Below, in pieces: positions 7,224 through 43,472 of a stretch of DNA of 64,000 nt. Within the stretch, counting starts at the first letter, position 1. Every line of letters starts with the position of its first letter. The DNA is from Escherichia coli (GTDB lineage: Bacteria > Pseudomonadota > Gammaproteobacteria > Enterobacterales > Enterobacteriaceae). The translations under genes were made by a program, and so were the position numbers. The DNA is taken from assembly GCF_030013205.1 (NCBI RefSeq), contig NZ_CP122648.1; one strand, written 5' to 3'. The notes under the pieces are model-generated. The model had not been told where the DNA came from. It ran no database searches and saw only the letters and a list, made by a program, of their open reading frames with translations.

Positions 7224-7393
7224 AATGGCTCACTCAAGCTTGCTCACGATTGATTCCAGTAACAAACCGTATTGTGTAATTATTTCTATAGCAGGTCGCT
7301 ATATAGGCTTGTATACATCGAATAATTTGAAAATCAAAGAGATAGGTAGATTTTCACTCGAAAGTAGTATTACGTGTAAGTGAGGAGTAATTA

Positions 7394-7407
7394 TTGTTCG
7401 GTATCAA
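7394..7407. promoter_or_regulatory. FNR-like box TTGTT-N4-ATCAA upstream of dmsA
   Basis: Sequence ttgttcggtatcaa, one mismatch to the TTGAT-N4-ATCAA consensus; dmsABC is known to be FNR-activated. Confidence 0.4.
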
Positions 7408-7419
7408 AGGGAGACAAAA

Positions 7420-7439
7420 AAAGCGCCCGCAGGCGCTTT
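7420..7439. repeat. 20-bp direct repeat aaagcgcccgcaggcgcttt, putative attL core of the P2-like prophage
   Basis: Identical 20-mer occurs again at 28470..28489; together they bracket all phage genes. Confidence 0.55.
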
Positions 7440-7522
7440 AACGTTTCTTGCTCCCCCTGATGATTTACTTATTTTTCAACGAATAAGCCAAAACAGGGGG
7501 AACAAATTAACACAAATTATAA

Positions 7523-8515
7523 CTAATCGATGGACAGTTTATGGACACTTTCAGCCAGCGGATTAAAGTTGATCGCGTCCTGTAAGAAGTCCGGCGAAAA
7601 ATGAGCGTACGTCATTGTTTGCTGAATCGTTGCGTGCCCCAGGATTCGTTGCAACGTAACAATATTTCCGCCATTCATCATAAAGTGTGTGGCAAATGTA
7701 TGACGCATGACATGCGTAGCCTGCCCCTTCGGCAAATCCGGTTTCACCTCCTGAAGAATCTCCCGGAACTTCAGATAATCAACCTGATACAATAACCCCG
7801 TTCGACGGGTTTTAATCAGAGGCACGACCGAATCCGCCACAGGAACCGAACGGGATTTTCCGTTTTTGGTGTTAAAGAACGTCACCCGGTTGCCAACGAT
7901 ATGCTCTCCACGTAGTTCCGATGCTTCACTCCATCGGGCACCAGTAGAAAGACACAGAATGGCAACACGACGCGCATCACCCTCCAGTCGCTCAAGAAGC
8001 CGTTCAATCTCATCATCAGAAAGAAAGGCCATCTCTGTGTTCTGAACTTTCAGTTTTCGTATACCGCGTACAGGGTTCGCGTTGTGAAAGACCTCAGCTT
8101 CAATCAGCACCGTGAACATGGTAGACAGTACGCATAAGTCACGATTAATACTGGACGGCATTAATCCGGCCTGTAATTTCTCTGACCGATATTCAAGCAT
8201 AAATTTTCGCGTCATCTGACTGGCGCGAGGATCTCCCATTTCACGAACAACCTTCCCTAGCCTAACCCTGTAGCTATCCCCGTAAGCCTGATTACGCCCA
8301 TCAAGCATCCACCACGCATCAAGCAGCTCTGATAATCGCCGCTGATCAGCTGGCTTAGCCTGCCATGGCTTGTCATGAAAGTTCTGTAACACATACTTCT
8401 CAAACTCCTGAGCCTTTGATTTCAGGGCAAAGATTTTTCGAATCCGCTTTCCTTCCGCCCCCTGCGGTCTGACATCGACCTGATAACGTCCGTCTTTGAG
8501 TTGCTTAATCGACAT
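7523..8515 (-). CDS. int: P2-type tyrosine integrase
   Basis: Strong similarity to P2 Int as I recall it (SIKQLKDGRY..., LCLSTGARW, HxxRHTFATH, YAHF); ATG at 8515 with GGAGG RBS; the track start at 8530 is TTG. Confidence 0.9.
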   Translation of the reverse strand: MSIKQLKDGRYQVDVRPQGAEGKRIRKIFALKSKAQEFEKYVLQNFHDKPWQAKPADQRRLSELLDAWWMLDGRNQAYGDSYRVRLGKVVREMGDPRASQMTRKFMLEYRSEKLQAGLMPSSINRDLCVLSTMFTVLIEAEVFHNANPVRGIRKLKVQNTEMAFLSDDEIERLLERLEGDARRVAILCLSTGARWSEASELRGEHIVGNRVTFFNTKNGKSRSVPVADSVVPLIKTRRTGLLYQVDYLKFREILQEVKPDLPKGQATHVMRHTFATHFMMNGGNIVTLQRILGHATIQQTMTYAHFSPDFLQDAINFNPLAESVHKLSID

Positions 8516-8584
8516 GATTAGCCCCTCCAACGGATAAATTAACTAAACACTCCTTGCGATATGTAATTCGCTCAATGTGTAGAG

Positions 8585-8926
8585 TCAGCCAACATTGCGG
8601 CCTGATCGGGGTGATTTTTGGGTAATACCGATTGAAACCTGATCGCCCTCCGACTGAATAGATCCATCAAGAGAGAGAGCCGGAGCAATCTGCCCGGCGA
8701 CAGGTAGCGTCTTATCTTTTATTAGCCACAGCATGTATTTTTCAAAGCGATCGACTTGCAGAACCGCCTCAACGATTTTTGCTCTAGCGTTCTTTTGCCC
8801 CGATTCGTAATTCCTTATGGTTGCCAAAGACAACCCAGTAATATCCGCAAACTGCTTTTGTGTTAACCCTTCCGCCTTACGTATCTGACGTAACTTTTTT
8901 GCATAGTCTATTGACAAGATAACCAT
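8585..8926 (-). CDS. phage immunity repressor (CI/C-type, XRE HTH)
   Basis: HTH LTQKQFADITGLSLATIRNYESG; ATG at 8926 preferred over the TTG at 8980; leftward next to int as in P2/186. Confidence 0.7.
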   Translation of the reverse strand: MVILSIDYAKKLRQIRKAEGLTQKQFADITGLSLATIRNYESGQKNARAKIVEAVLQVDRFEKYMLWLIKDKTLPVAGQIAPALSLDGSIQSEGDQVSIGITQKSPRSGRNVG

Positions 8927-8947
8927 TTGAGTATTAACCTCTCGCAC

Positions 8948-8971
8948 AAAGATAACCGTTTGATTATCTTT
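8948..8971. promoter_or_regulatory. inverted repeat aaagataa-N8-ttatcttt in the repressor/early switch region
   Basis: Perfect 8-bp arms between the repressor start and the first rightward gene; candidate operator. Confidence 0.35.
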
Positions 8972-9030
8972 ACAAACCAAAACAAACCATCACAAGGCGC
9001 GACAAGCGCACCAACGCAAGAGGATAACAA

Positions 9031-9552
9031 ATGCGGGACTTCATTGCCGATAAAGAGTTATCTGACCACCAACCACTTCAGGAAAGTGACGCACTCAGCG
9101 GATCCATTGATGCCGCCAACGACGACGAACACGAAGAAAACAAGAAAAAGCGTTCCTACAAAAAAGGAGCGACTTTACGGCTGGATGGTCCGATCGCCGG
9201 GCTTTGCTCTCTGGAAAAAGGCGCGGCATATATTGGGCTAACAAAATCTGCACTGCGCGTAGCCATTCATCGCGGTCAAATGCCGGGACACAAGACGCGC
9301 ACAAACCCGGAAGATGAAAACTCAGACGGAGTATGGTGGTTTAACGCCAAAGAGTGGGACGCACTGGCTGACGAGCTACCGGAACTTGAGCCACCAGAAT
9401 GGCACAACTGGAAAAGTTACTGGACGTATGACCGCCAGAAAAGAAAGTTCTTTCCAGCTAATAAAGAAGACTGCCAGACCATTAACGGTAAGCGAGTTTA
9501 TACAGGCAGAAGCTCAAAACTGAACCAACTCAGAAACAACAGAGGCAACTAA
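9031..9552 (+). CDS. first rightward early gene, possible Cox/Apl-like HTH regulator (unusually long)
   Basis: ATG with GAGGA RBS; HTH-like stretch IGLTKSALRVAIHRGQMPG; occupies the position of cox/apl. Confidence 0.35.
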   Translation: MRDFIADKELSDHQPLQESDALSGSIDAANDDEHEENKKKRSYKKGATLRLDGPIAGLCSLEKGAAYIGLTKSALRVAIHRGQMPGHKTRTNPEDENSDGVWWFNAKEWDALADELPELEPPEWHNWKSYWTYDRQKRKFFPANKEDCQTINGKRVYTGRSSKLNQLRNNRGN

Positions 9553-9556
9553 TCGT

Positions 9557-9979
9557 ATGAAAACAAACACGTCAGATTTCACAATAACTATTTCAAAAAA
9601 TGACCAAGCATTAATTGATAACCTGAAATACCTTGCGGAAAAACATAATAACGGACGAATTGCAATTAATTTACGACACATCACAGGAGTAACAATTGTA
9701 ACCAGTTACTGGCATCTATATCTAATCGCTAAATCAGTACTGGAAAACAAAGATTCTGTTGTCAATGGAAGAGATGTAGATACTCTTCCTGCACAAATCA
9801 AACCGATAGCCTATCAATTGCGTAATCGTTTTAAAAATGAAGGTGGGATTATATTTGACTTTCCCGCAGCTGTAGCCGTGAGCTTCTCTCGGGAGGATAT
9901 ACTTCACTCATTTCGTTTTGCTCTATCAGGTGACGAGACATTATGGCAGCTAGAAGATGCCGGGAGCAGCCCGGCATAA
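9557..9979 (+). CDS. hypothetical protein, AT-rich gene
   Basis: 140-aa ORF, visibly AT-rich relative to neighbours. Confidence 0.45.
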   Translation: MKTNTSDFTITISKNDQALIDNLKYLAEKHNNGRIAINLRHITGVTIVTSYWHLYLIAKSVLENKDSVVNGRDVDTLPAQIKPIAYQLRNRFKNEGGIIFDFPAAVAVSFSREDILHSFRFALSGDETLWQLEDAGSSPA

Positions 9980-9985
9980 ATCAAA

Positions 9986-10177
9986 TTAAAAATCAACCAG
10001 TTGTGTGACAGGTGGGTATTTACGCTGAATTTTGTCAGTTACTAACGCCAGTAATATATGAATCTCTGCGTTTAATGCGTCTTTATCACCCGTCGTTTTT
10101 ACCCTAGGAGGGTTAATGTTATCCAGAGCAGCACTAAGGTCACTCAACAAATTAACAACTTTTTTATCTTCTGACAT
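9986..10177 (-). CDS. hypothetical small protein, lone reverse-strand gene
   Basis: 63-aa ORF with GAGG RBS 5 nt upstream of its start; convergent with the 140-aa gene. Confidence 0.35.
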   Translation of the reverse strand: MSEDKKVVNLLSDLSAALDNINPPRVKTTGDKDALNAEIHILLALVTDKIQRKYPPVTQLVDF

Positions 10178-10312
10178 GAAAACCTCTAAACAATTTAATT
10201 AAACATAAGCCAGGACCTGAACCGGCCAGTCCAAGTCCTAGACACACAAAAAATACCACAAATCAATACAAGGTGACACGAGTACACCTTACCGAAGGTA
10301 CAGAGTTTTAAT

Positions 10313-10663
10313 ATGAAACTACAGCGCAATTCTTCACAGCCGCGCTTCCGCAACGGTGCGGAACGCCACGCTAACCGTTTCGCTACCAGTGCATCACGTA
10401 GCAACTCTCGCTACAGCCTGAGCGAAACACACGCAACGCCGGATGGCTACCCAGTAAAACAAATCGGCGAGCATACCTGGCTGATTGAGAAAGCTGGAAT
10501 TGTGGTCCACAAATGCCCACGCAATCCGTTTACCGGAAACCGCATTTTTGCATTGAGCTGCGGCGACAATCAGTTCGGGCAGGATTTCACATTATACGAA
10601 GCACTTCGCACGGTTGATCGTCTGCTTCGCGGGCAAAGTTTTATTAAACAGGCTGATTTATAA
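10313..10663 (+). CDS. hypothetical protein
   Basis: 116-aa ORF in rightward gene block. Confidence 0.45.
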   Translation: MKLQRNSSQPRFRNGAERHANRFATSASRSNSRYSLSETHATPDGYPVKQIGEHTWLIEKAGIVVHKCPRNPFTGNRIFALSCGDNQFGQDFTLYEALRTVDRLLRGQSFIKQADL

Positions 10664-10673
10664 CAGGTGCGTT

Positions 10674-10961
10674 ATGACCAAAGAGCATGCACAAGGTGTA
10701 TTTATCCGTTTTATTGATTTTCGCGGTGAAATGTTATTACGCGCATCCGCTATTGATGGAGTGGCTCCAGCGGGTAAAAACGGAGCCAACGAAGCCACTT
10801 ACGTTTATCTGAACAGCACGCGACTGCTTGTGGAACTTCCGTACCAGACCGTACGAGAAATCATTAGTGAAGCTGAAAAGGCACGCCAGGCTAATGGCGA
10901 TAAACCCTATATCGAAATTATTTGTATGGATTCAGAAACTGAAATTCAGAAAGCAGATTAA
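10674..10961 (+). CDS. hypothetical protein
   Basis: ATG at 10674 with AGGTG RBS, directly after the previous stop. Confidence 0.45.
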   Translation: MTKEHAQGVFIRFIDFRGEMLLRASAIDGVAPAGKNGANEATYVYLNSTRLLVELPYQTVREIISEAEKARQANGDKPYIEIICMDSETEIQKAD

Positions 10962-10972
10962 AGGGCGTTGCG

Positions 10973-11215
10973 ATGGGCAAAGAATATAAAACTCTCATTA
11001 ACAAAGCACTTGAGCGTTTTTATTTTCGCTTAAGTGCATCAGGCGCTCATGCTGAACGTGCAGCCCGTGACTCATTGACCAGGGCAATCCGGAGTCTGTA
11101 TGACGTGGCTTTTTACGCTGATGATCTGGATGCACTTAACGAACTTTCCGAGCTGATCTGTGCCGCAGAATGCGGGGAACATATTGAACCGTATAAGCTG
11201 GGGAATATCGCATGA
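10973..11215 (+). CDS. hypothetical protein
   Basis: 80-aa ORF, tight spacing in operon. Confidence 0.45.
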   Translation: MGKEYKTLINKALERFYFRLSASGAHAERAARDSLTRAIRSLYDVAFYADDLDALNELSELICAAECGEHIEPYKLGNIA

Positions 11216-11325
11216 GTATATTTATCTCGTGGCTTGTTCTGATTATTTCGGTGATCTGCGCTATTGGCATTATGCGAATTATTCATTCAGTGAAAAAGAT
11301 TGAGCGTTTTTTCTCTGACGAATAA
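11212..11325 (+). CDS. 37-aa hydrophobic peptide (MSIFISWLVLIISVICAIGIMRIIHSVKKIERFFSDE), not in ORF track
   Basis: ATG overlaps the upstream stop (ATGA); single predicted TM segment. Confidence 0.3.
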   Translation: MSIFISWLVLIISVICAIGIMRIIHSVKKIERFFSDE

Positions 11326-11418
11326 CAGCACAAATAAAACACCAGATTAAATAAGAAAACGTGAAAACCATCCGAATTAACGGAGGCATTCACACACGTA
11401 AATAATGGAGATACAAAA

Positions 11419-11829
11419 ATGAACGCAAAAGAAAAAGGCATTATAACTGCGCTAAAAAATATATCGGAGACCGCAAACAGAGCCATTCAGGATGCAACAA
11501 ATGCAGGAATGATTGGGCCTGCCACCACAGCCATGATGATAGCAAGAGTAACCGCCGAAGCAGCCGAAATTATCGAAAAACAGGATGCTGAACTAACGGT
11601 TCTCAGAACACAATCAGTCACCGAACTGGATTTGTCTAACACCGGACGCCTTATTTACACAATTGGCTCGGAGCCACAGCAATACACCATTATCGTCGGA
11701 TTACAGGATAAATACCTGATCACTCCTCACCCCATAAGGGAATCAGAAATTCTGACAAATCTCCGCCTGATAGAGCGCTCTCAAGTCGCATTCATTGATG
11801 ACGCACAGCGCACCGTATTTAACGCATAG
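11419..11829 (+). CDS. hypothetical protein
   Basis: 136-aa ORF. Confidence 0.45.
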   Translation: MNAKEKGIITALKNISETANRAIQDATNAGMIGPATTAMMIARVTAEAAEIIEKQDAELTVLRTQSVTELDLSNTGRLIYTIGSEPQQYTIIVGLQDKYLITPHPIRESEILTNLRLIERSQVAFIDDAQRTVFNA

Positions 11830-11853
11830 GGTTACTGGACAAAGGGGGGCGCA

Positions 11854-12057
11854 ATGGCAATTAAGCGTTTTTCCGTCATTCGTTTCACATCCAGAGGGCG
11901 TGAATACGAGGTTGACGAACGGCTGATTAAAACGCTCGACCGTCACCGTTCGCAACCTGACGCGCATCACATTTACCTCACTGACGACACTTACTTCTGC
12001 GCCACCAACGTGGTGCAGGTGAATCTTATCAGACAGGTACAGGAGTCACGCAGATGA
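11854..12057 (+). CDS. hypothetical protein
   Basis: 67-aa ORF, overlapping stop/start with the next gene. Confidence 0.4.
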   Translation: MAIKRFSVIRFTSRGREYEVDERLIKTLDRHRSQPDAHHIYLTDDTYFCATNVVQVNLIRQVQESRR

Positions 12058-12299
12058 CCATTCTGGACTACATCACAGCCAATCCGGGTTGTAGCGGTGG
12101 AGAAATCGCCGCCGCGCTGAATACCCCAACCACAGCCATTAATGCTGAGTTGCGCCGACTCTGGCGTGACGGCTTAGTCATCAGAGAAGAGCGCAAAACA
12201 GGCGGTCGGTTCTCTTACCAGGTAAACCCGATGCCGTTCGGGTGTGGCAACCCACTTACTCACATGTTTAACCAGCTACTGAAGGAAGCCAGAGCATGA
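12054..12299 (+). CDS. small winged-helix-like DNA-binding protein
   Basis: 81-aa ORF, ...GEIAAALNTPTTAINAELRRLWRDGLV... resembles a winged helix. Confidence 0.45.
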   Translation: MTILDYITANPGCSGGEIAAALNTPTTAINAELRRLWRDGLVIREERKTGGRFSYQVNPMPFGCGNPLTHMFNQLLKEARA

Positions 12300-12595
12300 G
12301 CACCATCAACCACCAGGAACTACGCGAACTGGCGACTGACCTGCAACGAATGGCAACGCATCAAAAATTACTGGCGTTTCGCGCAATGCTCTCGCCATCT
12401 GCCGTGTTGGCACTACTGGATGAGCTGGAGCACGCCAGAACCACAGCGCCAGCCATTCGCCTGACGCTCCATCATGAAATCGCTGATTTCTGTGCACCAC
12501 TGGGTTCACCTGGCGAACCGGAAACACCGGAAGCAATGCAGCGAGAGCTGCTGCAACGCATCGACAAGGTTTTTGATTTTTTCCTTAACCAGTAA
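12296..12595 (+). CDS. hypothetical protein
   Basis: 99-aa ORF. Confidence 0.45.
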   Translation: MSTINHQELRELATDLQRMATHQKLLAFRAMLSPSAVLALLDELEHARTTAPAIRLTLHHEIADFCAPLGSPGEPETPEAMQRELLQRIDKVFDFFLNQ

Positions 12596-12606
12596 GGGAT
12601 CGCAGC

Positions 12607-12810
12607 ATGAACAAAAAGACCTGGTTTCGCGCATACATGTGGGCGCTGGTATGCGTCCTCGTTTCTCTCATTCTGTATGCAGGACTCCTCCCCCGAATGA
12701 TTTCATCAGACAGCTCCTTCCTGGTATTGCTGGGCATTTTCATTGCCATGCTGTACCCGGCAGGCGTTGTTCGCCTTTTCAGTAAGTACATCAAGGAAAT
12801 CAAACAATGA
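12607..12810 (+). CDS. small two-TM membrane protein, partner of downstream SPFH protein
   Basis: 67 aa with two hydrophobic helices; stop overlaps the SPFH start. Confidence 0.5.
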   Translation: MNKKTWFRAYMWALVCVLVSLILYAGLLPRMISSDSSFLVLLGIFIAMLYPAGVVRLFSKYIKEIKQ

Positions 12811-13637
12811 AGAAATTCAAACTCTTTCAGATTATCCCTCTTTTTGCCGCCATCCTGCTGGTTGGTTGCGATCGTGTTGAGCCAGGTAATGTGGGCATCA
12901 AAGTCAACAAACTGGGCGACGACAAAGGCGTCGGTGAAGTGGTTGGTGTTGGCCGCTACTGGACTGGCTGGAATACCGAGGTTTACATCTTCCCGACCTT
13001 CAAACAAATGAAGACCTACGATGAGCCGTTCAGCTTCCAGATGAGTGACGGCACAACCATCGGCTATCACATCGGTGTGGCCTACAAGGTTGATCCATCC
13101 AAAGTTACTACAGTGTTTCAGACCTACCGCAAAGGCGTGGATGACATTACCGACACTGACCTGCGCCAGAAGATCGCCGATGCACTCAACCGACTGGCCA
13201 GCAAAATGACCACCGACAAATTTATCGACGGCGGGAAATCTGAACTACTGGATGCAGCTCTTAAAGACATTCAGGAGGAAATGACACCCATCGGTATTCA
13301 GGTAATGAGCCTCTCATATGTGGGTAAGCCGGAGTACCCGTCAACCGTTATCGACAGCATTAATGCCAAAGTCACGGCAAACCAGAAAACCCTGCAACGC
13401 GAACAGGAAGTCAAGCAACGTGAAGCAGAAGCCAACATGTTGCGCGCAGAAGCTGCCGGACAGGCTGATGCCATTCGCACAAAAGCCCAGGCTGAAGCCG
13501 ACGCCATTCGTTTACGCGGTGAAGCTCTGCGCCAGAATCCCGGCGTTATGGAGCTGGAAGCAATCAACAAATGGAACGGCACGCTGCCGCAATACATGAC
13601 CAGCAATACCGCTGTTCCGTTTGTTCCGGTGAAGTAA
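12807..13637 (+). CDS. SPFH/band-7 (prohibitin-like) lipoprotein
   Basis: Lipobox LLVGC after signal peptide; SPFH-like core and Ala/Glu-rich coiled-coil C-terminus. Confidence 0.75.
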   Translation: MKKFKLFQIIPLFAAILLVGCDRVEPGNVGIKVNKLGDDKGVGEVVGVGRYWTGWNTEVYIFPTFKQMKTYDEPFSFQMSDGTTIGYHIGVAYKVDPSKVTTVFQTYRKGVDDITDTDLRQKIADALNRLASKMTTDKFIDGGKSELLDAALKDIQEEMTPIGIQVMSLSYVGKPEYPSTVIDSINAKVTANQKTLQREQEVKQREAEANMLRAEAAGQADAIRTKAQAEADAIRLRGEALRQNPGVMELEAINKWNGTLPQYMTSNTAVPFVPVK

Positions 13638-13643
13638 TTAAAC

Positions 13644-13668
13644 CCGGCCAGTGAAAATCACTGGCCGG
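13644..13668 (+). terminator. 11-bp-stem hairpin after SPFH gene
   Basis: ccggccagtga-aaat-cactggccgg; a T-run follows about 12 nt later. Confidence 0.4.
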
Positions 13669-14004
13669 AGCAGTATCAGGATTTTTTAGTATGCCGTTCT
13701 CACAAAAAAACCGCTTGCCATGCCGCAATCAGTCAGGTTACATTTCCGCTGCACCTCATAAAACGGGTGCCGGGATTTCCACCCCGCTGACAACCAAAGC
13801 GCACAACCGCGCCAGCGGTTTTTTTGTGCGTACCGTATCGCCACGTCTTTTTCGCACACGAATTATGGTGGGGCGTATGGGGCCGACTTCGGTCGGGCCG
13901 GGTTCTTTGGTTGCCGGTTGTGGAAACCCTGTACGTCTCACCACCCCGAGTTTTCCACCTCTGGATGGTGAGTTTTCAAAACTTACAACCAAAGAGGCCA
14001 CACC

Positions 14005-14235
14005 ATGGCAAACCGCAAACAACAGCGCACATACGCTGCGCGTCGTCACATCCAGACTGAAATCAACCGCAGACTTTTCCGCGCATTCCGCGTCGCGCAA
14101 ATCATGCACATCAATATGCTGCATGAACGCAGTCACGCACTATCGAACAGCTATTCCGCCTCTGTTTTCAGCTATCTGGCGGATGATCTGCGCGAGCTTC
14201 AGCAGCTCATCCAGCAGCAAAACAAACTCCATTAA
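14005..14235 (+). CDS. hypothetical basic protein
   Basis: 76-aa ORF with AGAGG RBS. Confidence 0.4.
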   Translation: MANRKQQRTYAARRHIQTEINRRLFRAFRVAQIMHINMLHERSHALSNSYSASVFSYLADDLRELQQLIQQQNKLH

Positions 14236-14307
14236 TTCCTGTTCCGGGCCTTTCCTGCACCTTGCGGCGGGAGGCCTTCGCACATCTGTAACAAGAGGAG
14301 TGCCGCA

Positions 14308-14673
14308 ATGATTCTCGCCAACGACTTTCTTGAATACCTGCTCAACACAGAGCGTGATCTTGCCGTTCGCGTGCGTGACCGTTATGACATGTACCTGAAA
14401 TCCCTGCCTGTACCGCAGCTCGCTGACGGAAAGATTGTTATTGATGGCCGCTACATGATTGACAGCCACGAGGGAAATTACAGGCTTTACCGCATTGAAG
14501 GCGGCACCCCGTCCGTTATTGGCATTTACCAGCGCCCATCCTCTGCGATCGTCGATGTGATTGCAGACAGCATCCGCATCACACATCACTATGCCGACAC
14601 AGAAGACACCGTGCTGGAAATTCAGCGGCTGGCTACAGTCTGCCGCGACACCCTGAATGGCATGACGAAGTAA
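14308..14673 (+). CDS. hypothetical protein
   Basis: 121-aa ORF with AGAGGA RBS. Confidence 0.45.
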   Translation: MILANDFLEYLLNTERDLAVRVRDRYDMYLKSLPVPQLADGKIVIDGRYMIDSHEGNYRLYRIEGGTPSVIGIYQRPSSAIVDVIADSIRITHHYADTEDTVLEIQRLATVCRDTLNGMTK

Positions 14674-14679
14674 ATCACT

Positions 14680-14967
14680 ATGACAGCAGAGTACATCAGG
14701 GACTGGCAACAACCGCGCCACGCAGTGGGGCGTGAAGGAACGGGGATCCCTGCTCCTGAAGCGGTGGAAGGTGTCGCAACGTCACAGGCCGACATTATCG
14801 ACCGTTTTAATGCGCTGGAAACCCGCCATCAGCAGGACAGCCAGAAAATCACTTTACTGACCACAGAGCTGACAGCACTGAAGGAAAAACTGCGCACGCA
14901 GGACGGCGATCCGCAGAACCGGTTCACCGCAACGGGCGCAGCCTCCGATCAACTGGCTGACTTCTGA
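14680..14967 (+). CDS. hypothetical protein
   Basis: 95-aa ORF. Confidence 0.4.
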   Translation: MTAEYIRDWQQPRHAVGREGTGIPAPEAVEGVATSQADIIDRFNALETRHQQDSQKITLLTTELTALKEKLRTQDGDPQNRFTATGAASDQLADF

Positions 14968-14990
14968 TAAGACAAAGGAGCAAATTTTTT

Positions 14991-15254
14991 ATGAATCTGG
15001 TGATGTCAGATATTACCCGCAACAAGCTGGGTTGCTATATGGCGCAGCAGGCGTCGCTTAACAACATCCCGGTATCTGCACTGGTATCGCGATTTACCGT
15101 GGAACCCTCGGTGTCCGCCATTGCTGCCGCACTGCATGTGCACGGTGTGCAACGCGTGGAAATAATCGAACCCACACAGAATATGGCCATCAGCGACATA
15201 CAGGCGGCGCGCTGTGAGTCATTCACCATCAGCGAAGGTGGACGCAATGAGTAA
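14991..15254 (+). CDS. hypothetical protein
   Basis: 87-aa ORF with AAGGAG RBS; overlaps the gpI start by 8 nt. Confidence 0.45.
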   Translation: MNLVMSDITRNKLGCYMAQQASLNNIPVSALVSRFTVEPSVSAIAAALHVHGVQRVEIIEPTQNMAISDIQAARCESFTISEGGRNE

Positions 15255-15774
15255 TTCGCTGTTACCACCATCAGCCAGCAATTTCATGCGTTGTGCCGAA
15301 GCCGTCGGGACACGCATTACAGACATTCCGGTAGACCTCAACACGCTGTGGTCGCCGGATACCTGCCCGGTGCATCTGCTGCCTTATCTCGCCTGGGCAT
15401 TTTCCGTTGACCGCTGGGATCGCAACTGGCCGGAAGAGACAAAGCGACAGGTGATTCGTGATGCATGGCTGATACACCGACACAAGGGAACCATCAGCGC
15501 ACTGCGCCGGGCCATTGAGCCGCTGGGATATCTCATTCGTGTGTCTGAGTGGTGGGAGTTCGACGGCGAACCCGGAACATTCAAGGTTGATGTTGGCACG
15601 CTGGACAGTGGTGTGACCGAGGAAATGTATCTGGAAATGGAACGGCTGATTGCCGATGCCAAACCCGCAAGTCGCCACCTTATCGGCCTGAACATTATCC
15701 AGGACATTCCTGGCTATCTGTATACAGGCGGTGTGGTCTGTGATGGTGATGTTATTACTGTTTATCCCGGATAA
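15247..15774 (+). CDS. P2-like tail protein I
   Basis: ATG at 15247 (MSNSLLPPSAS...) with AGGTGG RBS; family motifs LWSPDTCP, LLPYLAWAFSVDRWD. Confidence 0.8.
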   Translation: MSNSLLPPSASNFMRCAEAVGTRITDIPVDLNTLWSPDTCPVHLLPYLAWAFSVDRWDRNWPEETKRQVIRDAWLIHRHKGTISALRRAIEPLGYLIRVSEWWEFDGEPGTFKVDVGTLDSGVTEEMYLEMERLIADAKPASRHLIGLNIIQDIPGYLYTGGVVCDGDVITVYPG

Positions 15775-15784
15775 GTGAGAAACA

Positions 15785-18442
15785 ATGAGCACGAAATTTA
15801 AAACCGTTATCACTACTGCCGGAGCCGCGAAGCTGGCAGCCGCCACTGTCCCCGGCGGGAAAAAAGTAACTCTGTCTGCAATGGCCGTGGGTGACGGTAA
15901 TGGCAAATTGCCGGTGCCGGATGCCGGTCAGACGAAACTGGTGCATGAGGTCTGGCGTCACGCTCTGAATAAAGTCAGCGTGGATAACAAGAATAAAAAC
16001 TATATCGTGGCTGAACTGGTTGTACCGCCAGAAGTGGGCGGCTTCTGGATGCGTGAGCTGGGTCTGTATGACGATGCCGGAACACTGATTGCGGTCGCTA
16101 ACATGGCGGAAAGCTATAAACCTGAACTCGCTGAAGGCTCCGGGCGCGCGCAGACCTGCCGCATGGTTATTATTGTCAGCAACGTGGCGTCCGTTGAGCT
16201 GAGTATTGATGCCAGCACAGTGATGGCGACGCAGGATTACGTCGATGACAAAATCGCAGAGCATGAGCAGTCCCGCCGCCATCCTGACGCCACGCTGACA
16301 GAAAAAGGTTTTACTCAGTTAAGTAGCGCAACAAACAGCACCAGTGAAGAGCTGGCGGCAACGCCAAAGGCAGTAAAAGCAGCCTATGACAATGCTGAAA
16401 AACGTATGCAGAAAGACCAGAACGGTGACGATATTCCAGATAAGGGCGCTTTTCTGGACAACGTTGGCGTTACCAGCCTGACGTTTATGAAAAACAATGG
16501 CGAAATGCCGCTTGATGCTGACTTGAATACATTTGGTCCCGTTAAGGCTTATCTTGGCATCTGGTCTAAAGCAACATCCACCAACGCAACACTGGAGAAA
16601 AATTTCCCGGAAGATAATGCTGTCGGTGTGCTTGAGGTTTTTGCAGCTGGCAATTTTGCAGGCACGCAACGTTTTATCACGAGAGACGGCAATGTATACA
16701 TGCGTAAACTCGCCAATAAGTGGAATGGCACTGATGGTCCGTGGGGCGTATGGCGTCACACTCAATCAGCTACCCGCCCTTTGAGTACGACTATAGACCT
16801 GAATACGCTTGGAGCCGCTGAGCATCTTGGTTTATGGCGTAACAGTAGCTCGGCTATAGCTTCATATGAACGCAATTATCCAGAGGAAGGCGGCTTTGCT
16901 CAGGGGACGCTTGAGATCCTCGAAGGCGGGAATTATGGAAGAACGCAACGTTATACCACTCGTCGTGGGAATATGTACGTTCGCTGCCTTGCGGCAAGCT
17001 GGGATGCATCAAATCCGCAGTGGGAACCGTGGTTAAGAGTCGGTCATCAGTCAGAGAGCCGTTATTACGAAGGTGATTTGAATGTTCTAACCGACCCCGG
17101 TATTTACAGTGTTACAGGAAAGGCGACAAACGGTCCGATGCTGGACGCTGCTGGGGCGACATTGCTTGGGATACTGGAAGTAATCAGGCGTTTTGATGGT
17201 GTATCTGTCTGGCAGCGTTACACAACCACAGGGAAATCAGAAACCACACAGGGGCGCACTTTTGAGCGCGTCTACGCCGGGAGCACATGGACCGAATGGC
17301 GAGAAGTGTATAACTCCTTTTCGTTGCCCCTGAATATGGGGATCGGTGGCGCAGTGGCAAAACTCACCAGCCTGGACTGGCAGACCTACGATTTTGTGCC
17401 GGGCAGTCTGATAACCGTTCGGCTTGATAACATGACCAATATTCCCGACGGTATGGACTGGGGCGTCATTGATGGCAACCTGATAAACATCGCTGTTGGT
17501 CCGAGTGATGATTCCGGTACGGGGCGCTCAATGCATGTATGGCGCAGCACTGTAAGTAAAGCGAATTACCGCTTTTTTATGGTTCGCATTTCAGGAAATC
17601 CGGGAAGCCGCACGATTACGACAAGACGTGTGCCAATTATCGACGAAGCTCAGACATGGGCGGCGAAACAGACATTCAGCGGTGGTCTTTCTGGCGAACT
17701 ATCCGGCAATGCTGCTACAGCAACAAAGCTGAAAACGGCAAGGACAATTAACGGCGTAAAATTTGACGGCTCGGCAAATATTGAAGCGTTTCCGCCAGGT
17801 GTTCCGCTGCCGTGGCCATCAGATACTGTGCCGTCTGGTTACGCCCTGATGCAGGGACAGACTTTTGATAAATCTGCATACCCGAAACTTGCAGTCGCTT
17901 ATCCGTCAGGCGTGATCCCGGATATGCGTGGCTGGACAATCAAGGGCAAACCCGCCAGTGGTCGGGCCGTATTGTCTCTGGAACAGGACGGCATTAAATC
18001 GCACACCCACAGTGCCAGCGCATCCAGTACGGATTTGGGTACGAAAACCACATCGTCGTTTGATTACGGTACTAAATCAACGAATAACACAGGTGCACAT
18101 ACCCACAATGTATCTGGTACTGCAAATAGTGCTGGCGCACATACTCATACCGTTCCATTAAGGAGACCAAACAGTGGCGGTATGAATTTCGACTGGCTGG
18201 ATGGTGCATCAAGTGGCACGGTGGTGGGGAATGGAACTGTGCCTTCTTCTGGCGCACATACCCACTCAGTATCAGGTACCGCTACAAGTGCTGGGGCACA
18301 TGCACACACTGTTGGTATTGGCGCTCATACGCACTCTGTTGCGATTGGTTCACATGGACACACCATCACCGTTAACGCTGCTGGTAACGCGGAAAACACC
18401 GTTAAAAACATCGCATTTAATTATATTGTGAGGCTTGCATAA
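15785..18442 (+). CDS. P2-like tail fiber protein H
   Basis: 885-aa ORF; conserved N-terminus [21 protein letters not shown]...; C-terminal His-rich repeats (GAHTHxV). Confidence 0.85.
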
Positions 18443-19059
18443 TGGCATTCAGAATGAGTGAACAATCACGTACTGTAAAAATTTATAACCTGCTGGCCGG
18501 AACTAATGAGTTTATTGGTGAAGGTGACGCATATATTCCACCTCATACAGGGCTGCCAGCCAATTCTACAGATATCGCCCCACCGGAAATTCCTGCTGGC
18601 TTTGTGGCAGTTTTTAACAGTGAAAATGAATCGTGGAATATTGTTGAAGACCATCGTGGTAAAACGGTCTATGACGTGGCATCGGGGGACGCGTTGTTTA
18701 TTTCTGAACCCGGACCGCTACCAGAGAATGTCACCTGGTTGTCGCCAGCAGGGGAGTATCAGAAGTGGGACGGCGTATCCTGGGTGAAGGATGAGGAAGC
18801 AGAAAAACTGTTTCGGATACGGGAAGCGGAAGAGAAAAAGGCAAGGTTGATCCAGGAAGCAACAGATAACATCGCAATTCTGCAGGATGCAGTTAATCTT
18901 GAAATAGCAACAAACGAGGAAAATTCACAACTGGATTCCTGGAGAAAATACAGAGTATTAGTGAGTAGAATTGACACCAGTACAGCTCCGGATATCGTAT
19001 GGCCAGAGCTGATGAATCAGGGTTATGTGCGGGAGGACGAGCAGATAACTTCAGACTGA
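18442..19059 (+). CDS. tail fiber assembly protein (gpG-like)
   Basis: 205-aa ORF immediately after H with overlapping stop/start. Confidence 0.7.
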
Positions 19060-19586
19060 AATTTAGTGATGAATGTTGAATCATCTGGAATATCATGCAA
19101 TACCAATGCATGAGCACCTATTGTGACATTGTTTCCTATACGCACTTTGCCACCAAGAATGGTGGCATTACAACCAATGGTCACATTATGTCCTATAACA
19201 ATATCCATATCATTAAAATCACCACGCAGCCCAATAGTTACCCCTGGTTTTATTGAACAATTTTCACCGATTGTTACTTTGTGACCGATAACAACACTGT
19301 TGAGATAAGAAATATCAAAGCCTTTCCCTATATTTACAGTTAAAGGGACTGTTACATTATATTTATCAAGAATGAAACGTTCTATTTTCCCCGCAATCTT
19401 CCGACAGCATCCGCCTTTATCAAAAAGGTATTTGGCTATGCGCCACCAAAATAAATAACGAACTCTTCTATGTTTTATTGCGCGAACAATTGCCTTTCGC
19501 CAGGAGAAAGGACGCTCGCTACCGATTACTTCATAGTGAATACAATCTTTAAGTTCATTAATATTCATATCTCTATTATTCAGCAT
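19023..19586 (-). CDS. hexapeptide-repeat (LbH) acetyltransferase, AT-rich cargo gene
   Basis: Repeated [LIV]-G-x-x-x-x motifs ([22 protein letters not shown]...); AT-rich; sits at the P2 Z/fun position. Confidence 0.75.
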
Positions 19587-19756
19587 AAGATAATCATGTG
19601 ACCAATTATTGTAATAATTTTAATGGTATGTTTCTACTGGCTATCCAGCGTGTCTGATGTCCAGTAACAAATCGTTAACACTGGTGCAATCAAATGGTGA
19701 GTGTTAAGACTGGCCACTTATTACCAGGTATGAGGGTATGAGTGGCCAGCATTAAA

Positions 19757-20251
19757 TCAGAACAGCCCTTTAACTGAACTGGCCGCGCTGTTAAGGGATG
19801 ATGTCACTTTATCTTTGAAGCCGGACAGCATATCGCTGAACGATGAGGATTGCAGGCGCTCCCGCAAATCCTCATCACAGCGTTCAAGGGTCAGTGAAAA
19901 TTCTATCTTTTTCGCCTTACCGTAGCGATCAAACTCGGAACGGGTCGTATTCGTTTCGGTCAGGACATACATGCCGTAAATCTGCCCGACGCCATCAATA
20001 AGAGGCCAGGGGCGTCCTGTATACGCCTGCGTGGTCAGCAGCGACAGCGACACTTCGCCACCTGTAATTTCAGGATAAAGCACACCAGAAAGAACGATGC
20101 GATCATCACCTGCACCGATATACTGCCAGCTTGCTGAACGGTTAACGCGTTCATTTTTCACATGCCGCCAGCTTTTGTTTTGCTGTAACTGCTGATGCGG
20201 CAGCGTGCGCAGCTCAAAAACAAACATGCCGTAGATCATCATCATGGCCAT
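19757..20251 (-). CDS. P2-like tail protein U
   Basis: 164-aa ORF following T on the minus strand. Confidence 0.7.
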   Translation of the reverse strand: MAMMMIYGMFVFELRTLPHQQLQQNKSWRHVKNERVNRSASWQYIGAGDDRIVLSGVLYPEITGGEVSLSLLTTQAYTGRPWPLIDGVGQIYGMYVLTETNTTRSEFDRYGKAKKIEFSLTLERCDEDLRERLQSSSFSDMLSGFKDKVTSSLNSAASSVKGLF

Positions 20252-20257
20252 GACTCC

Positions 20258-36221: not shown

Positions 36222-36716
36222 TTAGCGCGTCTTAATAACCAGACGATTACTCTGCTTGACTTCTTCCATAACAACGTATGTCCGTGTGTCATTGACGCCA
36301 GGCAGACGCAGCAGGGTTTCCCCCAGCAACTTACGGTAAGCTGACATATCCGGCACGCGTGTTTTCAACAGGTAGTCGAAATCACCGGATACTAAATGAC
36401 ACTCCTGAATTTCTTCAAGTTTTTGTACAGCGGTATTGAATTGTTCAAACACATCCGGTGCGCCACGATTCAGAGTAATCTCAACGAATACCAGAAGTGA
36501 TGCATCCAGATAATGAGGGTTCAGCAGCGCCGTATAGCCCTGAATAAACCCTTGTCTTTCCAGCCGACGCACACGCTCAAGGCACGGCGTTGGGGAAAGT
36601 CCCACACGTTTAGAAAGCTCGACGTTAGAAATACGCCCATCCTTTTGCAACTCATTAAGAATGTTACGATCGATACGGTCGAGATCTTTGCCTGGGCGCT
36701 TCTTGCTATCTACCAT
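36222..36716 (-). CDS. lrp: leucine-responsive regulatory protein
   Basis: ATG at 36716 (MVDSKKRPGKDLDRIDRNIL...), 164 aa, AsnC family. Confidence 0.95.
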   Translation of the reverse strand: MVDSKKRPGKDLDRIDRNILNELQKDGRISNVELSKRVGLSPTPCLERVRRLERQGFIQGYTALLNPHYLDASLLVFVEITLNRGAPDVFEQFNTAVQKLEEIQECHLVSGDFDYLLKTRVPDMSAYRKLLGETLLRLPGVNDTRTYVVMEEVKQSNRLVIKTR

Positions 36717-37142
36717 TATTATTGTCTCTCTGTATTCCTTCCCTACTCCTGTCTGACCCTGAAACATCACTGTTCAGAGTCGCTACCCGTCACGATAGAC
36801 CGAAATCATGAAGATTCACGGCGCGCAATGCCTGGGTCTACGGTGAGAAGACCGTTGCCTTGTGGCAGCTATCGACATCACGAATGGCGTCTGTCCACGC
36901 CATACGTAGATTTCACTAGCACGGTAAACATGGTATTTACATGCATGGTTATGCGCATATAAGAATACTGTTTTTTTCTTCCTCGAATGTTTTCGCAAAA
37001 CACCAGGGGATTGTCAAAGCAAAACATCGATTTTTAGTACAACATGCCAGATATTCATTACCAGGGGCGTTTATTCATCATTTAATCGGCTTATAAAGCG
37101 GGAAATTTAAGTAGCAGAGGTGATAATGACGGGAGAATTTGA

Positions 37143-38225
<1,083 letters not shown>

Positions 38226-38252
38226 TTTTACAAATCAGTAACAAAAGTAAAG

Positions 38253-38291
38253 AAGGCGACACCATGCGACTATGGGTCGCCTTTATTTTTT
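38253..38291 (+). terminator. rho-independent terminator after trxB
   Basis: aggcgac...gtcgcct hairpin followed by ttattttttcc. Confidence 0.5.
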
Positions 38292-38347
38292 CCTCGTTGT
38301 AACATTGCTCTGCAAATAATTCTGATAACTCACCTGCTAAGCGTGCA

Positions 38348-43338: not shown

Positions 43339-43426
43339 GGTGAGGTGTCCGAGTGGCTGAAGGAGCACGCCTGGAAAGTGTGTATACGGCAACGTATCGG
43401 GGGTTCGAATCCCCCCCTCACCGCCA
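43339..43426 (+). tRNA. serW: tRNA-Ser (anticodon GGA)
   Basis: 88-nt GGTGAGGTGTCCGAGTGG...TTCGAATCCCCCCCTCACCGCCA with long variable arm and GGA in the anticodon loop. Confidence 0.93.
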
Positions 43427-43472
43427 TATTCAAAGAAGAGCTCGTACGAAAGTAGGGGCTTTTTTTTCGCAT
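43408..43472. repeat. direct repeat copy 1 (tRNA-Ser 3' end plus terminator)
   Basis: aatccccccctcaccgccatattcaaagaagagctcgtacgaaagtaggggcttttttttcgcat. Confidence 0.7.

Follow-up and report, generated by a model that had tools for sequence, protein, structure and literature searches.

Why should tail gene I of a P2-family prophage be preceded by a structured leader and four small open reading frames (ORFs), at a position where the baseplate genes V, W and J would be expected? We addressed this question in a window of 64,000 nucleotides from the chromosome of Escherichia coli ETEC4079, which carries a P88-like (Xuanwuvirus, P2-family) prophage at the dmsA/serS site. The original prediction for this locus was that a deletion had fused foreign cargo to the tail operon, or that the ORFs were novel accessory genes. 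Several of the features that it described hold: the coordinates give four ORFs of 76, 121, 95 and 87 amino acids, the last of them (ORF87) overlaps the gene I start codon (ATG 15247) by 8 nt, and the region ahead of I does lack V, W and most of J. The ORFs were also said to have good ribosome binding sites (RBSs), and three of them do have a recognisable one (AAGAGG, AAGAGGAG and AAAGGAG), but the site of ORF95 is weak. The stretch as a whole is a case of ordinary prophage decay and not of new cargo, and we consider it very likely that it is made of two parts, a native and intact P88-like regulatory cassette (13691–14673) followed by the wreckage of two deletions (14680–15254).

Two deletions gave rise to ORF95 and ORF87

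Strain ETEC1701 carries an intact sibling of this prophage that is 99.98% identical. Comparison by blastn with the sibling returned exactly three collinear blocks at 99.98–100% identity and no further matches, with positions 5001–14760 collinear with the ETEC1701 early region at 99.98% identity. This alignment to an intact P2-like genome, which had been suggested as a check, mapped both junctions exactly, and breakpoints and microhomologies could be read base by base against the sibling. The proposal of a deletion is therefore right in kind, but there are two of them, and they lie inside ORF95 and inside ORF87, not at the leader or at the edge of the ORF block.

Junction 1 (14758–14760) is the scar of an 8,279-bp deletion with a 3-bp microhomology, GAA, that removed most of A, all of parM, a parR-like gene, Q and P, and 630 nt of O. 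The resulting ORF95 (14680–14967, plus strand) is an in-frame chimera of gpA residues 1–27 (14680–14760) and the C-terminal 69 aa of the gpO scaffold (up to 14967), with a Pfam Phage_GPO match over residues 27–94. Junction 2 (15112–15113) corresponds to a 6,608-bp deletion with a 2-bp microhomology, TG, in which most of N and 756 nt of J were lost together with the whole of M, L, X, the holin, the endolysin, lysB/C, R, S, V and W. Here the product is ORF87 (14991–15254, plus strand), an in-frame chimera of gpN residues 1–41 (14991–15113) and the C-terminal 46 aa of baseplate gpJ (15114–15254) that keeps the native J/I overlap and matches major head families in PHROG over residues 5–43 and baseplate families over residues 40–87. 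Contrary to the statement that none of the four proteins resembles V, W or J, the last 46 residues of ORF87 (42–87) are identical to the gpJ C-terminus of the sibling. The same identity holds for all prefixes and suffixes of the two chimeras when compared with sibling gpA, gpO, gpN and gpJ, and PGAP independently annotates four pseudogene fragments. An NCBIfam search of all four ORFs gave no informative match. Judged from their sequences, ORF95 and ORF87 are deletion remnants and not genes.

A 351-bp island was left between the two deletions. Downstream of them, tail gene I (15247–15774, plus strand) is intact and identical to the sibling copy, and together with H and G it now lies downstream of the early-region cassette. 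Also intact in the remnant are the sheath, tube and tape measure genes, D and ogr; a truncation of gpD had been suspected from a short PGAP call, but was rejected as the 413-codon ORF is complete. Each junction was found in ETEC4079 only (1 of 5,426 complete E. coli genomes), and this restriction to a single genome, together with the near-identity to the intact sibling, indicates that the configuration is very recent.

Other explanations of this configuration fare poorly. That both deletions are artefacts of the ETEC4079 assembly, for instance through collapsed reads of a second P2-like prophage, with the prophage in reality intact, would fit the occurrence of each junction in one genome only and the frequent presence of several related P2-like prophages per E. 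coli genome (median 3 matching places). We nevertheless think it very improbable, given a finished circular chromosome, clean junctions with 2–3 bp of microhomology and flanks 100% identical to the sibling, and a retained island that is atypical of collapse. The intact tail genes and the in-frame state of both chimeras could also be taken to mean that the remnant has been domesticated, e.g. as a tailocin or for tail-fibre expression from the early promoter; this is hardly credible, since without V, W, most of J and the lysis genes no contractile particle could be assembled or released, the configuration is a very recent one seen in a single genome, and two in-frame fusions would arise by chance about 1 time in 9. 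As for foreign cargo joined to the tail operon by one deletion, or four novel accessory or defence genes, the absence of the baseplate genes upstream of I and the lack of a Pfam match for ORF121 itself are what speaks for it. This reading is effectively refuted by the ETEC1701 alignment: the sequence as far as 14760 lines up with the early regions of the sibling, P88, phiSM and UTI89, ORF76, ORF95 and ORF87 can be clearly assigned to P4- or P2-family proteins, and ORF121 belongs to a conserved phage family with a link to DUF5405 (see below). The ORFs thus show the homology to known P2-family baseplate and early proteins that the original prediction had itself set against novelty. PADLOC-DB 2.0, which covers the proposed check against defence systems, gave no defence family at E ≤ 0.01 for the four ORFs, the SPFH protein or the Ash-like frame described below, and nothing beyond noise for a 67-aa membrane protein.

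The leader contains isrK- and C4-type RNAs

The cassette upstream of 14680 is native phage content. The SPFH gene (end at 13637) and the gene for the 67-aa membrane protein occupy a variable cargo slot upstream of the cassette, and are missing in 705R2, phiSM and PhiR44_2; the membrane protein has a single 14-bit PADLOC match, which is noise. Directly after the SPFH stop codon, a perfect 12-bp hairpin (13643–13669) forms the boundary between the cargo slot and the conserved cassette. This hairpin had been called the SPFH terminator, but it is not a canonical plus-strand terminator because its T-run is 14 nt off; our scan scored it as a terminator for the minus strand. The cassette beyond it occupies the same position, ahead of gene A, in P88, phiSM, 705R2, PhiR44_2 and the UTI89 prophage. 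Its RNA, ORF76 and ORF121 sequences are 91.8–96.4% identical in nucleotides to those of P88, phiSM and UTI89 (the dmsA-serS prophage), with the same gene order, and the ETEC1701 cassette is identical to that of ETEC4079.

The leader between the SPFH gene and ORF76 is structured over ∼315 nt, with a predicted fold for 13751–14010 of −105 kcal/mol (z = −3.9) that none of 200 shuffled sequences equalled. The description of a hairpin-rich leader of ∼300 bp is in this respect accurate, but the leader is only mildly GC-rich, at 54% overall (57% in isrK and 61% in C4, compared with 50% in the window). Near its start, the motif TTGCCA-N17-TTACAT (13715–13743, plus strand) matches a sigma-70 promoter at 9 of 12 positions and is conserved at related loci. 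From its sequence, we infer that it works as a promoter with transcription starting at ∼13751, which is the first base of an isrK-type leader RNA (13751–13825, plus strand; Rfam RF01394, 64.3 bits against a gathering threshold of 50, E = 1.9e-11). The isrK element ends in an intrinsic terminator, formed by a stem at 13805–13820 followed by U7, and is situated just upstream of a C4-type RNA, so that score, 3′ terminator and location all agree with membership in this family. Within it lies a first two-part target site, UUUCCAC (13776–13782) and CAACCAAAG (13791–13799).

After a 35-nt spacer follows an antisense RNA of the C4/CI type (13861–13948, plus strand), which matches Rfam RF01695 with 80.5 bits (gathering threshold 45, E = 3.6e-14) over its full length, model positions 1–87 of 87; for comparison, the P4 CI RNA scores 74.9 bits against the same model. 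Its specificity elements are the loop CUUUGGUUG (13905–13913) and the bulge GUGGAAA (13920–13926). A second target site (13952–13997, plus strand) consists of UUUCCAC (13952–13958), a small hairpin and CAACCAAAG (13986–13994), the last of which overlaps the Shine–Dalgarno (SD) sequence AAGAGG (13992–13997) of ORF76, whose ATG is at 14005. Membership in the C4 family is thereby indicated by the covariance model score, by two-part targets on both sides of the RNA and by the RBS overlap of the downstream one. The isrK and C4 elements are the counterparts of seqA and the CI RNA in the satellite phage P4, the isrK leader being equivalent also to the a1b1 region of P1, and target site 2 is the counterpart of seqC and a2b2. 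The same order, isrK and then C4, is seen in P4, N15, ST64B, P13374, P88, phiSM, 705R2, PhiR44_2 and UTI89.

C4 specificity elements co-vary with both target sites

Both the first site (13776–13799) and the second (13952–13994) match the C4 loop at 9/9 positions and the C4 bulge at 7/7 by complementarity, and complementarity to both sites was found in all 10 loci that we compared. We then parsed IMG/VR and phage loci with a regular expression for the C4 core, which succeeded for 55 of 86 loci, the remaining 31 being left out. These 55 loci contain 14 combinations of loop and bulge, a number that is a lower bound because of the unparsed loci, and nearly all of them match 9/9 and 7/7 at both sites. 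The three-way match between C4, the isrK site and the ORF76 SD site therefore co-varies across 14 specificity types in related phages. Differences are seen between individual elements: the P88 C4 loop (CUGUAGUUG) differs from that of the window, UTI89 has a loop (CUUUGUUGA) and a bulge (GUUCCAA) that are both unlike those of the window, and phiSM combines the loop of the window with the bulge of UTI89.

Duplex predictions agree with this pattern. With RNAduplex, C4 and target site 2 gave −34.8 kcal/mol, compared with −21.8 ± 3.4 for shuffled targets, which makes the cognate duplex ∼3.8 standard deviations more stable than those with shuffled targets. In a cross-matrix of downstream targets, each C4 RNA preferred its own target, with the exception of that of N15. 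In the minimum-energy fold, the isrK site is paired in cis with the C4 loop.

ORF76 and ORF121

ORF76 (14005–14235, plus strand; 76 aa) is related to the P4 epsilon-type 'derepression protein' family, Pfam PF25738, with 29 bits against a gathering threshold of 27, a margin of only 2 bits. BLASTP against P4 epsilon itself gave 30% identity over 66 aa (E = 3e-8), and nearly all of 195 ORF76 homologues belong to PF25738. Changes in the ORF76 frame are synonymous in 36% of cases, compared with 21% expected; C-terminally truncated variants of 213 and 225 nt are also known. No meaningful match was found among PDB sequences for either ORF76 or ORF121. The prophage repressor is a homologue of P2 C (35% identity, E = 2e-23), and a P2 C-like repressor is the established target of P4 epsilon. 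By homology and position, ORF76 may be an antirepressor of this repressor.

ORF121 (14308–14673, plus strand; 121 aa) is a conserved early protein encoded directly upstream of gene A, and belongs to phrog_3237 (E = 4e-54). It probably corresponds to P2 Orf83 (DUF5405), likewise a small early protein whose gene adjoins the start of gene A, with an N-terminus about 30–40 aa longer in ORF121. The sequence relationship is a distant one. ORF121 itself has no Pfam match, including to DUF5405, even at E ≤ 10, and no significant pairwise BLASTP match to P2 Orf83; a homologue 72% identical to ORF121 passes the DUF5405 gathering score (26.5 compared with 21.6), and hhalign aligns ORF121 with P2 Orf83 over 76 columns at E = 6.5e-5 with a probability of only 64%. 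A P4 counterpart for ORF121 was considered and rejected because comparisons with P4 orf151 and orf106 showed no similarity. With ORF76 epsilon-like, ORF121 probably Orf83-like, and ORF95 and ORF87 remnants of A and O and of N and J, novel accessory genes are not what this locus contains.

A long Ash/Eta-like frame overlaps the RNAs

The leader had been described as lacking a convincing ORF, which we consider doubtful. A frame of 206 codons (13691–14311, plus strand) extends across isrK, C4 and ORF76, the last of these in a different register, and ends in an ATGA overlap with the ORF121 start codon. Its ATG at 13691 lies upstream of the internal promoter (−35 hexamer at 13715). The predicted protein scores 30 bits against Pfam Phage_ASH PF10554 (cutoff 26), for which P4 Eta scores 82 bits, and its register over the RNA elements is identical to that of P4 eta. 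It is thus assigned to Phage_ASH by score, by a course through the seqA and CI sequences and by a start upstream of the promoter; in PGAP it is annotated as a pseudogene of the 'ash family'.

No stop codon interrupts the frame in 43 of 44 distinct relatives, and an in-frame ATG is retained in 40 of 41 distinct upstream regions that represent at least four different upstream contexts. All indels preserve the frame, with the ATG at −311, −314 or −317 and a net change of +3 nt in UTI89, and the stop codon overlaps the ORF121 ATG in every relative. Signs of selection on the encoded protein are scarce. Variable sites in the leader are distributed 21/24/18 over the codon positions, with no third-position excess; this test used six homologues and is weak alone, and was therefore repeated on ∼40 distinct IMG/VR sequences, which are close kin and not independent. 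In these, no amino-acid-level constraint on the long frame was found where it overlaps ORF76, and avoidance of stop codons in this overlap is borderline, with 1 observed compared with ∼4.8 expected. A shuffled leader is free of stops in a given frame ∼2% of the time, and synonymous shuffling of ORF76 keeps the overlapping frame open 29% of the time. Conservation at the RNA level alone could keep part of the long frame open.

Two doubts about the cassette deserve to be weighed together, one concerning this frame and one concerning ORF76. The 206-codon frame might never be translated, the conserved RNA merely happening to be stop-free there and the leader being purely non-coding. The flat codon-position distribution, the lack of synonymous enrichment in the ORF76 overlap and the frequent survival of the frame in ORF76 shuffles are consistent with this, yet we regard it as rather doubtful, as the frame stays open in relatives even though TAG or TGA triplets are frequent in the specificity elements, no indel breaks it, its ATG is kept at the cassette edge in varied contexts, its stop always falls on the ORF121 ATG, and translation of P4 eta, in the same frame, has been reported to prevent termination (PMC10111431). 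With regard to ORF76, the first C4-controlled ORF in P1, N15, Gifsy-1 and P4 is a small coupling or toxic one (icd, orf45, kil), and ORF76 could accordingly be not an antirepressor but the Icd- or Kil-like first ORF of a P1/N15-type immI operon. The marginal Pfam score and the truncated variants would suit such a role; in it, translation of ORF76 would mainly open the mRNA for downstream genes, or ORF76 would inhibit host cell division. The 66-residue match to P4 epsilon itself, family-wide membership in PF25738 and a resident repressor of the P2 C type, the known target of epsilon, make it unlikely, and so does the 72-nt gap between ORF76 and ORF121, because of which the two are not translationally coupled.

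A proposed mechanism of regulation and decay

With ORF76 taken as epsilon-type and the long frame as translated, homology and architecture point to the following scheme. The cassette, placed between the early genes and replication gene A, is built like the P4 immunity region. Transcripts from the internal promoter (start at ∼13751) would enter the isrK/seqA-type leader, and most would end at its terminator. Those that read through would include the C4/CI-type RNA, presumably excised by RNase P in the manner known from P1 and P4, whose loop and bulge would pair with the two-part leader site and with its second copy over the ORF76 RBS. Pairing over the RBS is predicted to block translation of the epsilon-type antirepressor and, by polarity, would probably lower expression of ORF121 and gene A as well. 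During lytic growth, transcripts arriving from the early promoter upstream would carry the ATG at 13691, and ribosomes on the 206-codon frame would melt both the isrK terminator and the C4 pairings before passing to ORF121 at the ATGA overlap, as in P4 eta. We also looked near the cassette for a LexA box (CTG-N10-CAG) in connection with the SOS inducibility of P88, and found only a poor match inside ORF76.

In ETEC4079, the two microhomology-mediated deletions of 8,279 and 6,608 bp took away genes for replication and partition, for packaging and the capsid, and for lysis and the baseplate, leaving the in-frame chimeras A′::′O and N′::′J joined to I-H-G. As originally posed, the finding matters little, being a textbook example of recent prophage decay. 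It does carry lessons for annotation: a chimeric ORF that has a good native RBS may look like a gene, and a structured 'leader' may be a known pair of RNAs. Of broader relevance is that a P4-type isrK/C4/epsilon cassette precedes gene A in a group of P2-family prophages that is common in E. coli.

Comparison with known systems

The IsrK-C4 immunity system is known from P4, P1, P7, N15 and lambdoid prophages (PMC3632133), and the isrK and C4 Rfam models are reported to detect relatives of seqA and CI (PMC10111431). In a literature search on C4 antisense RNA in P2-like phages we found no paper describing the cassette there, and the papers on P88 and phiSM do not mention it. The Phollow preprint deals with Tum rather than with epsilon.

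The closest known arrangement is the immunity region of P4, with the order eta/kil - seqA - cI RNA - seqC - epsilon - orf151 - alpha. The two have in common the isrK and C4 families in succession, an Ash-family frame over both RNAs in the same register, two-part targets on either side of the RNA, of which the second lies on an SD sequence, an epsilon homologue next and a replication gene at the end of the operon. They differ in that the cassette belongs to a full helper-type P2-family phage whereas P4 is a satellite, and in that the replication gene encodes the gpA nickase in the former and the alpha primase in the latter. The ORF directly gated by C4 is here the epsilon-like ORF76, nested out of frame in the Ash frame, whereas in P4 it is kil, in the eta frame, with epsilon after kil. 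The spacer between isrK and C4 is 107 nt in P4, compared with 35 nt here. Unlike ETEC4079, the P88, phiSM and UTI89 elements retain A through J.

The cassette also resembles P1/P7 immI (c4 - icd - ant) and N15 (cA - icd - antABC), in which a processed antisense RNA of RF01695 controls an antirepressor operon, its loop elements pairing with an upstream site (a1b1) and with another (a2b2) that covers the RBS of the ORF next downstream (PMC3632133). The downstream proteins are unrelated, the cassette having no Icd, Ant or Bro-type antirepressor, and its location inside an early replication operon also sets it apart. In the Salmonella prophage Gifsy-1 (isrK - orf45 - anrP), an isrK-family leader with a terminator gives, when read through, a longer mRNA as well as a processed downstream RNA, STnc1160, and controls how a small ORF and an antirepressor are translated (PMC4825925). 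Gifsy-1 is lambdoid, its short IsrK is a trans-activator for which Hfq binding and trans-activation were shown, and its downstream proteins differ from those of the cassette; in the literature, IsrK is regarded as structurally homologous to P4 seqA, and the RNA that follows it is likened to CI (PMC4825925).

Taken with these systems, our results lead us to suggest, tentatively, that helpers of the P88 group may carry a complete P4-type module as a second, RNA-based layer of immunity that gates an antirepressor and gene A and whose elements reassort (at least 14 combinations). If so, the reassorting specificity elements would suggest that P2-like phages and P4-like satellites residing together are engaged in an arms race, and the defective ETEC4079 prophage could still confer RNA immunity against related phages, or induce them through epsilon. 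The natural covariation across 14 types and the conserved overlapping frame make the cassette a ready system in which to study the specificity of RNA immunity in conflicts between helpers and satellites or between helpers. On the reading suggested above, the control region of P4 would share ancestry with the early operon of a helper phage, contrary to the published view that, among P4-specific genes, delta alone has clear P2-like homologues (PMC8628076).

Two recent deletions upstream of tail gene I

The region under study is part of a prophage of the P2 family that has inserted between the genes dmsA and serS. Among sequenced phages it is closest to P88, P884B11 and Citrobacter phiSM, which all belong to genus Xuanwuvirus, family Peduoviridae; P88, itself P2-like, comes from an ETEC strain of pig origin and can be induced with mitomycin (PMC5285337; PMC6456863). 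The window's strain, ETEC4079, shares its origin in a Belgian pig collection with ETEC1701, in which this prophage occupies the identical site and retains the full P2 gene order (A, parM, parR-like, Q, P, O, N, M, L, X, holin, lysin, lysB/C, R, S, V, W, J, I, H, G). When window positions 5001–32000 were compared with the ETEC1701 prophage by blastn, three collinear blocks were recovered and nothing more: 5001–14760 with 11402–21161 of the ETEC1701 locus L003 (99.98% identity), 14758–15113 with 29438–29793 (100%) and 15109–19873 with 36397–41161 (99.98%). Exactly two deletions therefore separate the prophages. Deletion 1 (8,279 bp, GAA microhomology of 3 bp at 14758–14760) took out gene A from codon 28 onwards, parM, the parR-like gene, Q and P in their entirety, and 630 nt of O. 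Deletion 2 (6,608 bp, TG microhomology of 2 bp at 15112–15113) took out N from codon 42 onwards, every gene from M through W, and 756 nt of J; a 351-bp island was kept between them. Each junction is found in 1 of 5,426 complete E. coli genomes, and the flanks of both are essentially identical to those in the undeleted ETEC1701 prophage; the losses are therefore recent and private to ETEC4079.

The four small ORFs predicted upstream of I exist at 76, 121, 95 and 87 aa, with ORF87 overlapping the gene I start (ATG at 15247), and V, W and most of J are indeed missing there. The view that none of the four resembles V, W or J was mistaken, as ORF87 resembles a baseplate protein: in it, gpN residues 1–41 continue in frame into the final 46 residues of gpJ, up to the native J/I overlap, and PHROGs matches to major head (residues 5–43) and baseplate (residues 40–87) agree. 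In ORF95, gpA residues 1–27 are followed in frame by the final 69 residues of the scaffold gpO, and Pfam Phage_GPO accordingly matches residues 27–94. The four fragments (A, O, N and J) are already pseudogenes in the PGAP annotation, and the good ribosome binding sites noted for ORF95 and ORF87 simply belong to the original starts of A and N. The original prediction proposed either a deletion that fused foreign cargo to the tail operon or novel accessory genes; deletions are real, but there are two, they are sited elsewhere, and no foreign or novel genes are involved. Nor does any defence-system model match anything in the region. Taken as a whole, the observation is partly confirmed and its interpretation partly supported.

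Several neighbouring features were recorded. Immediately before the cassette, a slot of variable content (12607–13637) encodes a 67-aa membrane protein and an SPFH/Band-7 lipoprotein, neither with a PADLOC match; the pair is found in the window, P88 and UTI89, is absent from 705R2 and PhiR44_2, and is replaced by a DNA-binding protein in phiSM. A hexapeptide-repeat serine acetyltransferase-like gene on the minus strand (19023–19586), flanked by the tail-fibre assembly gene on one side and tail genes on the other and also present in ETEC1701, looks like a moron or lysogenic-conversion cargo. PGAP places a Hok/Gef-family toxin gene (28070–28210) at the right end, between ogr and serS, and Rfam matches STnc130 sRNA (7314–7448) between dmsA and the prophage integrase, tRNA-Ser(GGA) (43339–43426) and, directly after it, an RtT element (43471–43606). 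Gene D (25368–26609) is annotated by PGAP as a 266-aa 'VgrG/Pvc8 family' protein with an adjoining pseudogene; decay was rejected, since the whole 413-codon ORF is open (its DNA is 96–97% identical to related phages' gene D regions) and the short call is a start-site issue.

The leader carries isrK and C4 RNAs with two matching targets

The leader, between the SPFH gene and ORF76, is strongly structured, in line with the predicted hairpins (13751–14010 folds at −105 kcal/mol, z = −3.9), though only mildly GC-rich (54% versus 50% for the window). Rfam models identify isrK at 13751–13825 (64.3 bits, gathering threshold 50) and a full-length C4 antisense RNA at 13861–13948 (80.5 bits, gathering threshold 45). 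The predicted start of a sigma-70-like promoter (TTGCCA-N17-TTACAT, 13715–13743) is the first base of isrK, which ends in a canonical terminator. The satellite phage P4 gives isrK and C4 matches in the same order, over the seqA leader and CI RNA and with epsilon after them, and this order recurs in N15 (cA region), ST64B, Stx phage P13374, P88, phiSM, 705R2, PhiR44_2 and the UTI89 prophage. IsrK has been described as a structural homologue of P4 seqA, and a processed RNA downstream of it has been compared with CI (PMC4825925); seqA and CI relatives are detected by the isrK and C4 models (PMC10111431). Downstream of the P13374 cassette, an sRNA-Xcc1 match (L009, 3023–3106, 79.6 bits) overlaps the small antB2 antirepressor gene.

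The C4 loop CUUUGGUUG (13905–13913) and 3′ bulge GUGGAAA (13920–13926) are complementary to UUUCCAC...CAACCAAAG within isrK (13776–13799) and to a second target copy at 13952–13994, the 3′ half of which overlaps the ORF76 Shine-Dalgarno AAGAGG (ORF76 ATG at 14005). Across ten loci compared, loop and bulge vary and both targets vary with them. Loop and bulge were parsed in 55 loci linked to ORF76 (50 from IMG/VR, out of 80, together with the window and four phages or prophages). These show 14 loop/bulge combinations, a lower bound with 31 of 86 loci unparsed, and nearly all match 9/9 and 7/7 at both sites; in IMGVR_UViG_2537561977_000027 (L072) the loop match to the upstream site is weaker (8/9). 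The cognate duplex is predicted at −34.8 kcal/mol versus −21.8 ± 3.4 for shuffled targets, and in a cross-matrix of downstream targets its own target is the best pairing for every C4 but that of N15. These comparisons are strong comparative evidence that C4–target pairing is functional. Loops and bulges also mix: the loop of the window stands with the UTI89 bulge in phiSM, and across P88-group cassettes (L014–L093, L002, L005–L008) it is seen with three different bulges; the two specificity elements look reassorted.

ORF76 resembles P4 epsilon and ORF121 is a probable Orf83 counterpart

ORF76 scores just over the threshold of Pfam 'Derepression' PF25738 (29 versus 27 bits) and aligns with P4 epsilon along 66 residues at 30% identity (E = 3e-8). 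Of 195 homologues in databases, nearly all are PF25738, and their source records call them 'derepression protein'; the ORF76 frame is enriched in synonymous changes (43/120 versus 21% expected). The prophage repressor is a homologue of P2 C (35% identity, E = 2e-23), the known target class of P4 epsilon. ORF121 falls in phrog_3237, has a narrow homologue set and is not itself a formal member of Pfam DUF5405. Because a 72% identical homologue passes the DUF5405 threshold, P2 Orf83 is a DUF5405 protein adjoining gene A in P2, and a profile of ORF121 homologues aligns with Orf83 over 76 columns (probability 64%, E = 6.5e-5), ORF121 is probably the Orf83 counterpart. P4 orf151 and orf106 were rejected as counterparts, being unrelated.

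An overlapping Ash/Eta-like frame is conserved

A long conserved frame speaks against the original prediction of no convincing ORF in the leader. This Ash/Eta-like frame of 206 codons (Pfam Phage_ASH, 30 versus 26 bits) starts upstream of the internal promoter (ATG 13691), crosses isrK, C4 and, out of frame, ORF76, and its stop (TGA 14309–14311) overlaps the ORF121 ATG. The P4 eta ORF likewise spans seqA and cI (Phage_ASH, 82 bits), with the RNA sequences read in the same register. Of 44 distinct related sequences, 43 keep the frame open across both RNAs, although chance alone would leave it open at a non-negligible rate; the other alternative frame is broken at variable places. In 40 of 41 distinct upstream regions an in-frame ATG precedes that of ORF76, at −311, −314 or −317, and it is retained across at least four different preceding genes or contexts. 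L072, the sole related locus with the frame broken in the isrK region and without the upstream ATG, may be a decaying copy. A search for amino-acid-level constraint on the frame found none, and the conserved feature seems to be translatability, not a protein. In P4, only transcripts from upstream allow eta to be translated, and that translation averts termination (PMC10111431); conservation of translatability fits this model, and we think this reading fairly probable.

In P4 (L004), the Ash profile PF10554 matches the eta frame over seqA and CI RNA (8168–8812), and epsilon is a separate downstream ORF (PF25738, 7888–8175). Databases and at least one survey equate 'Ash' with epsilon, a survey of P4-like satellites having used PF10554 as its epsilon marker (PMC8628076). 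'Epsilon' counts made with PF10554 may in fact count the RNA cassette.

Discussion

In a lysogen, the internal promoter would make isrK, with most transcripts terminating; read-through would yield C4, which RNase P presumably matures, as it does in P1 and P4, and which would pair with the nascent leader and the ORF76 ribosome binding site, blocking ORF76, the putative antirepressor, and, by polarity, lowering ORF121 and gene A. Once the early promoter is derepressed, upstream transcripts would let ribosomes onto the Ash/Eta frame, where they could override both terminator and C4 pairing before coupling into ORF121 and gene A. In ETEC4079 the regulatory module is intact, its client gene A is destroyed, and I, H and G now lie behind it.

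All elements come from described families and the remnants had been annotated before, so that the finding as first written is ordinary. What is modestly new, and worth a note, is a complete Ash/isrK/C4/epsilon module with at least 14 modular specificities in a common helper-type prophage group, because no description of this cassette in P2-like phages came up in the literature searched and the satellite survey names delta as the only P4-specific gene with clear P2-like homologues (PMC8628076). The arrangement is like that of P1 c4, where loop elements a′b′ face targets a1b1 and a2b2, and like that of P4 CI, where seqB faces targets seqA and seqC.
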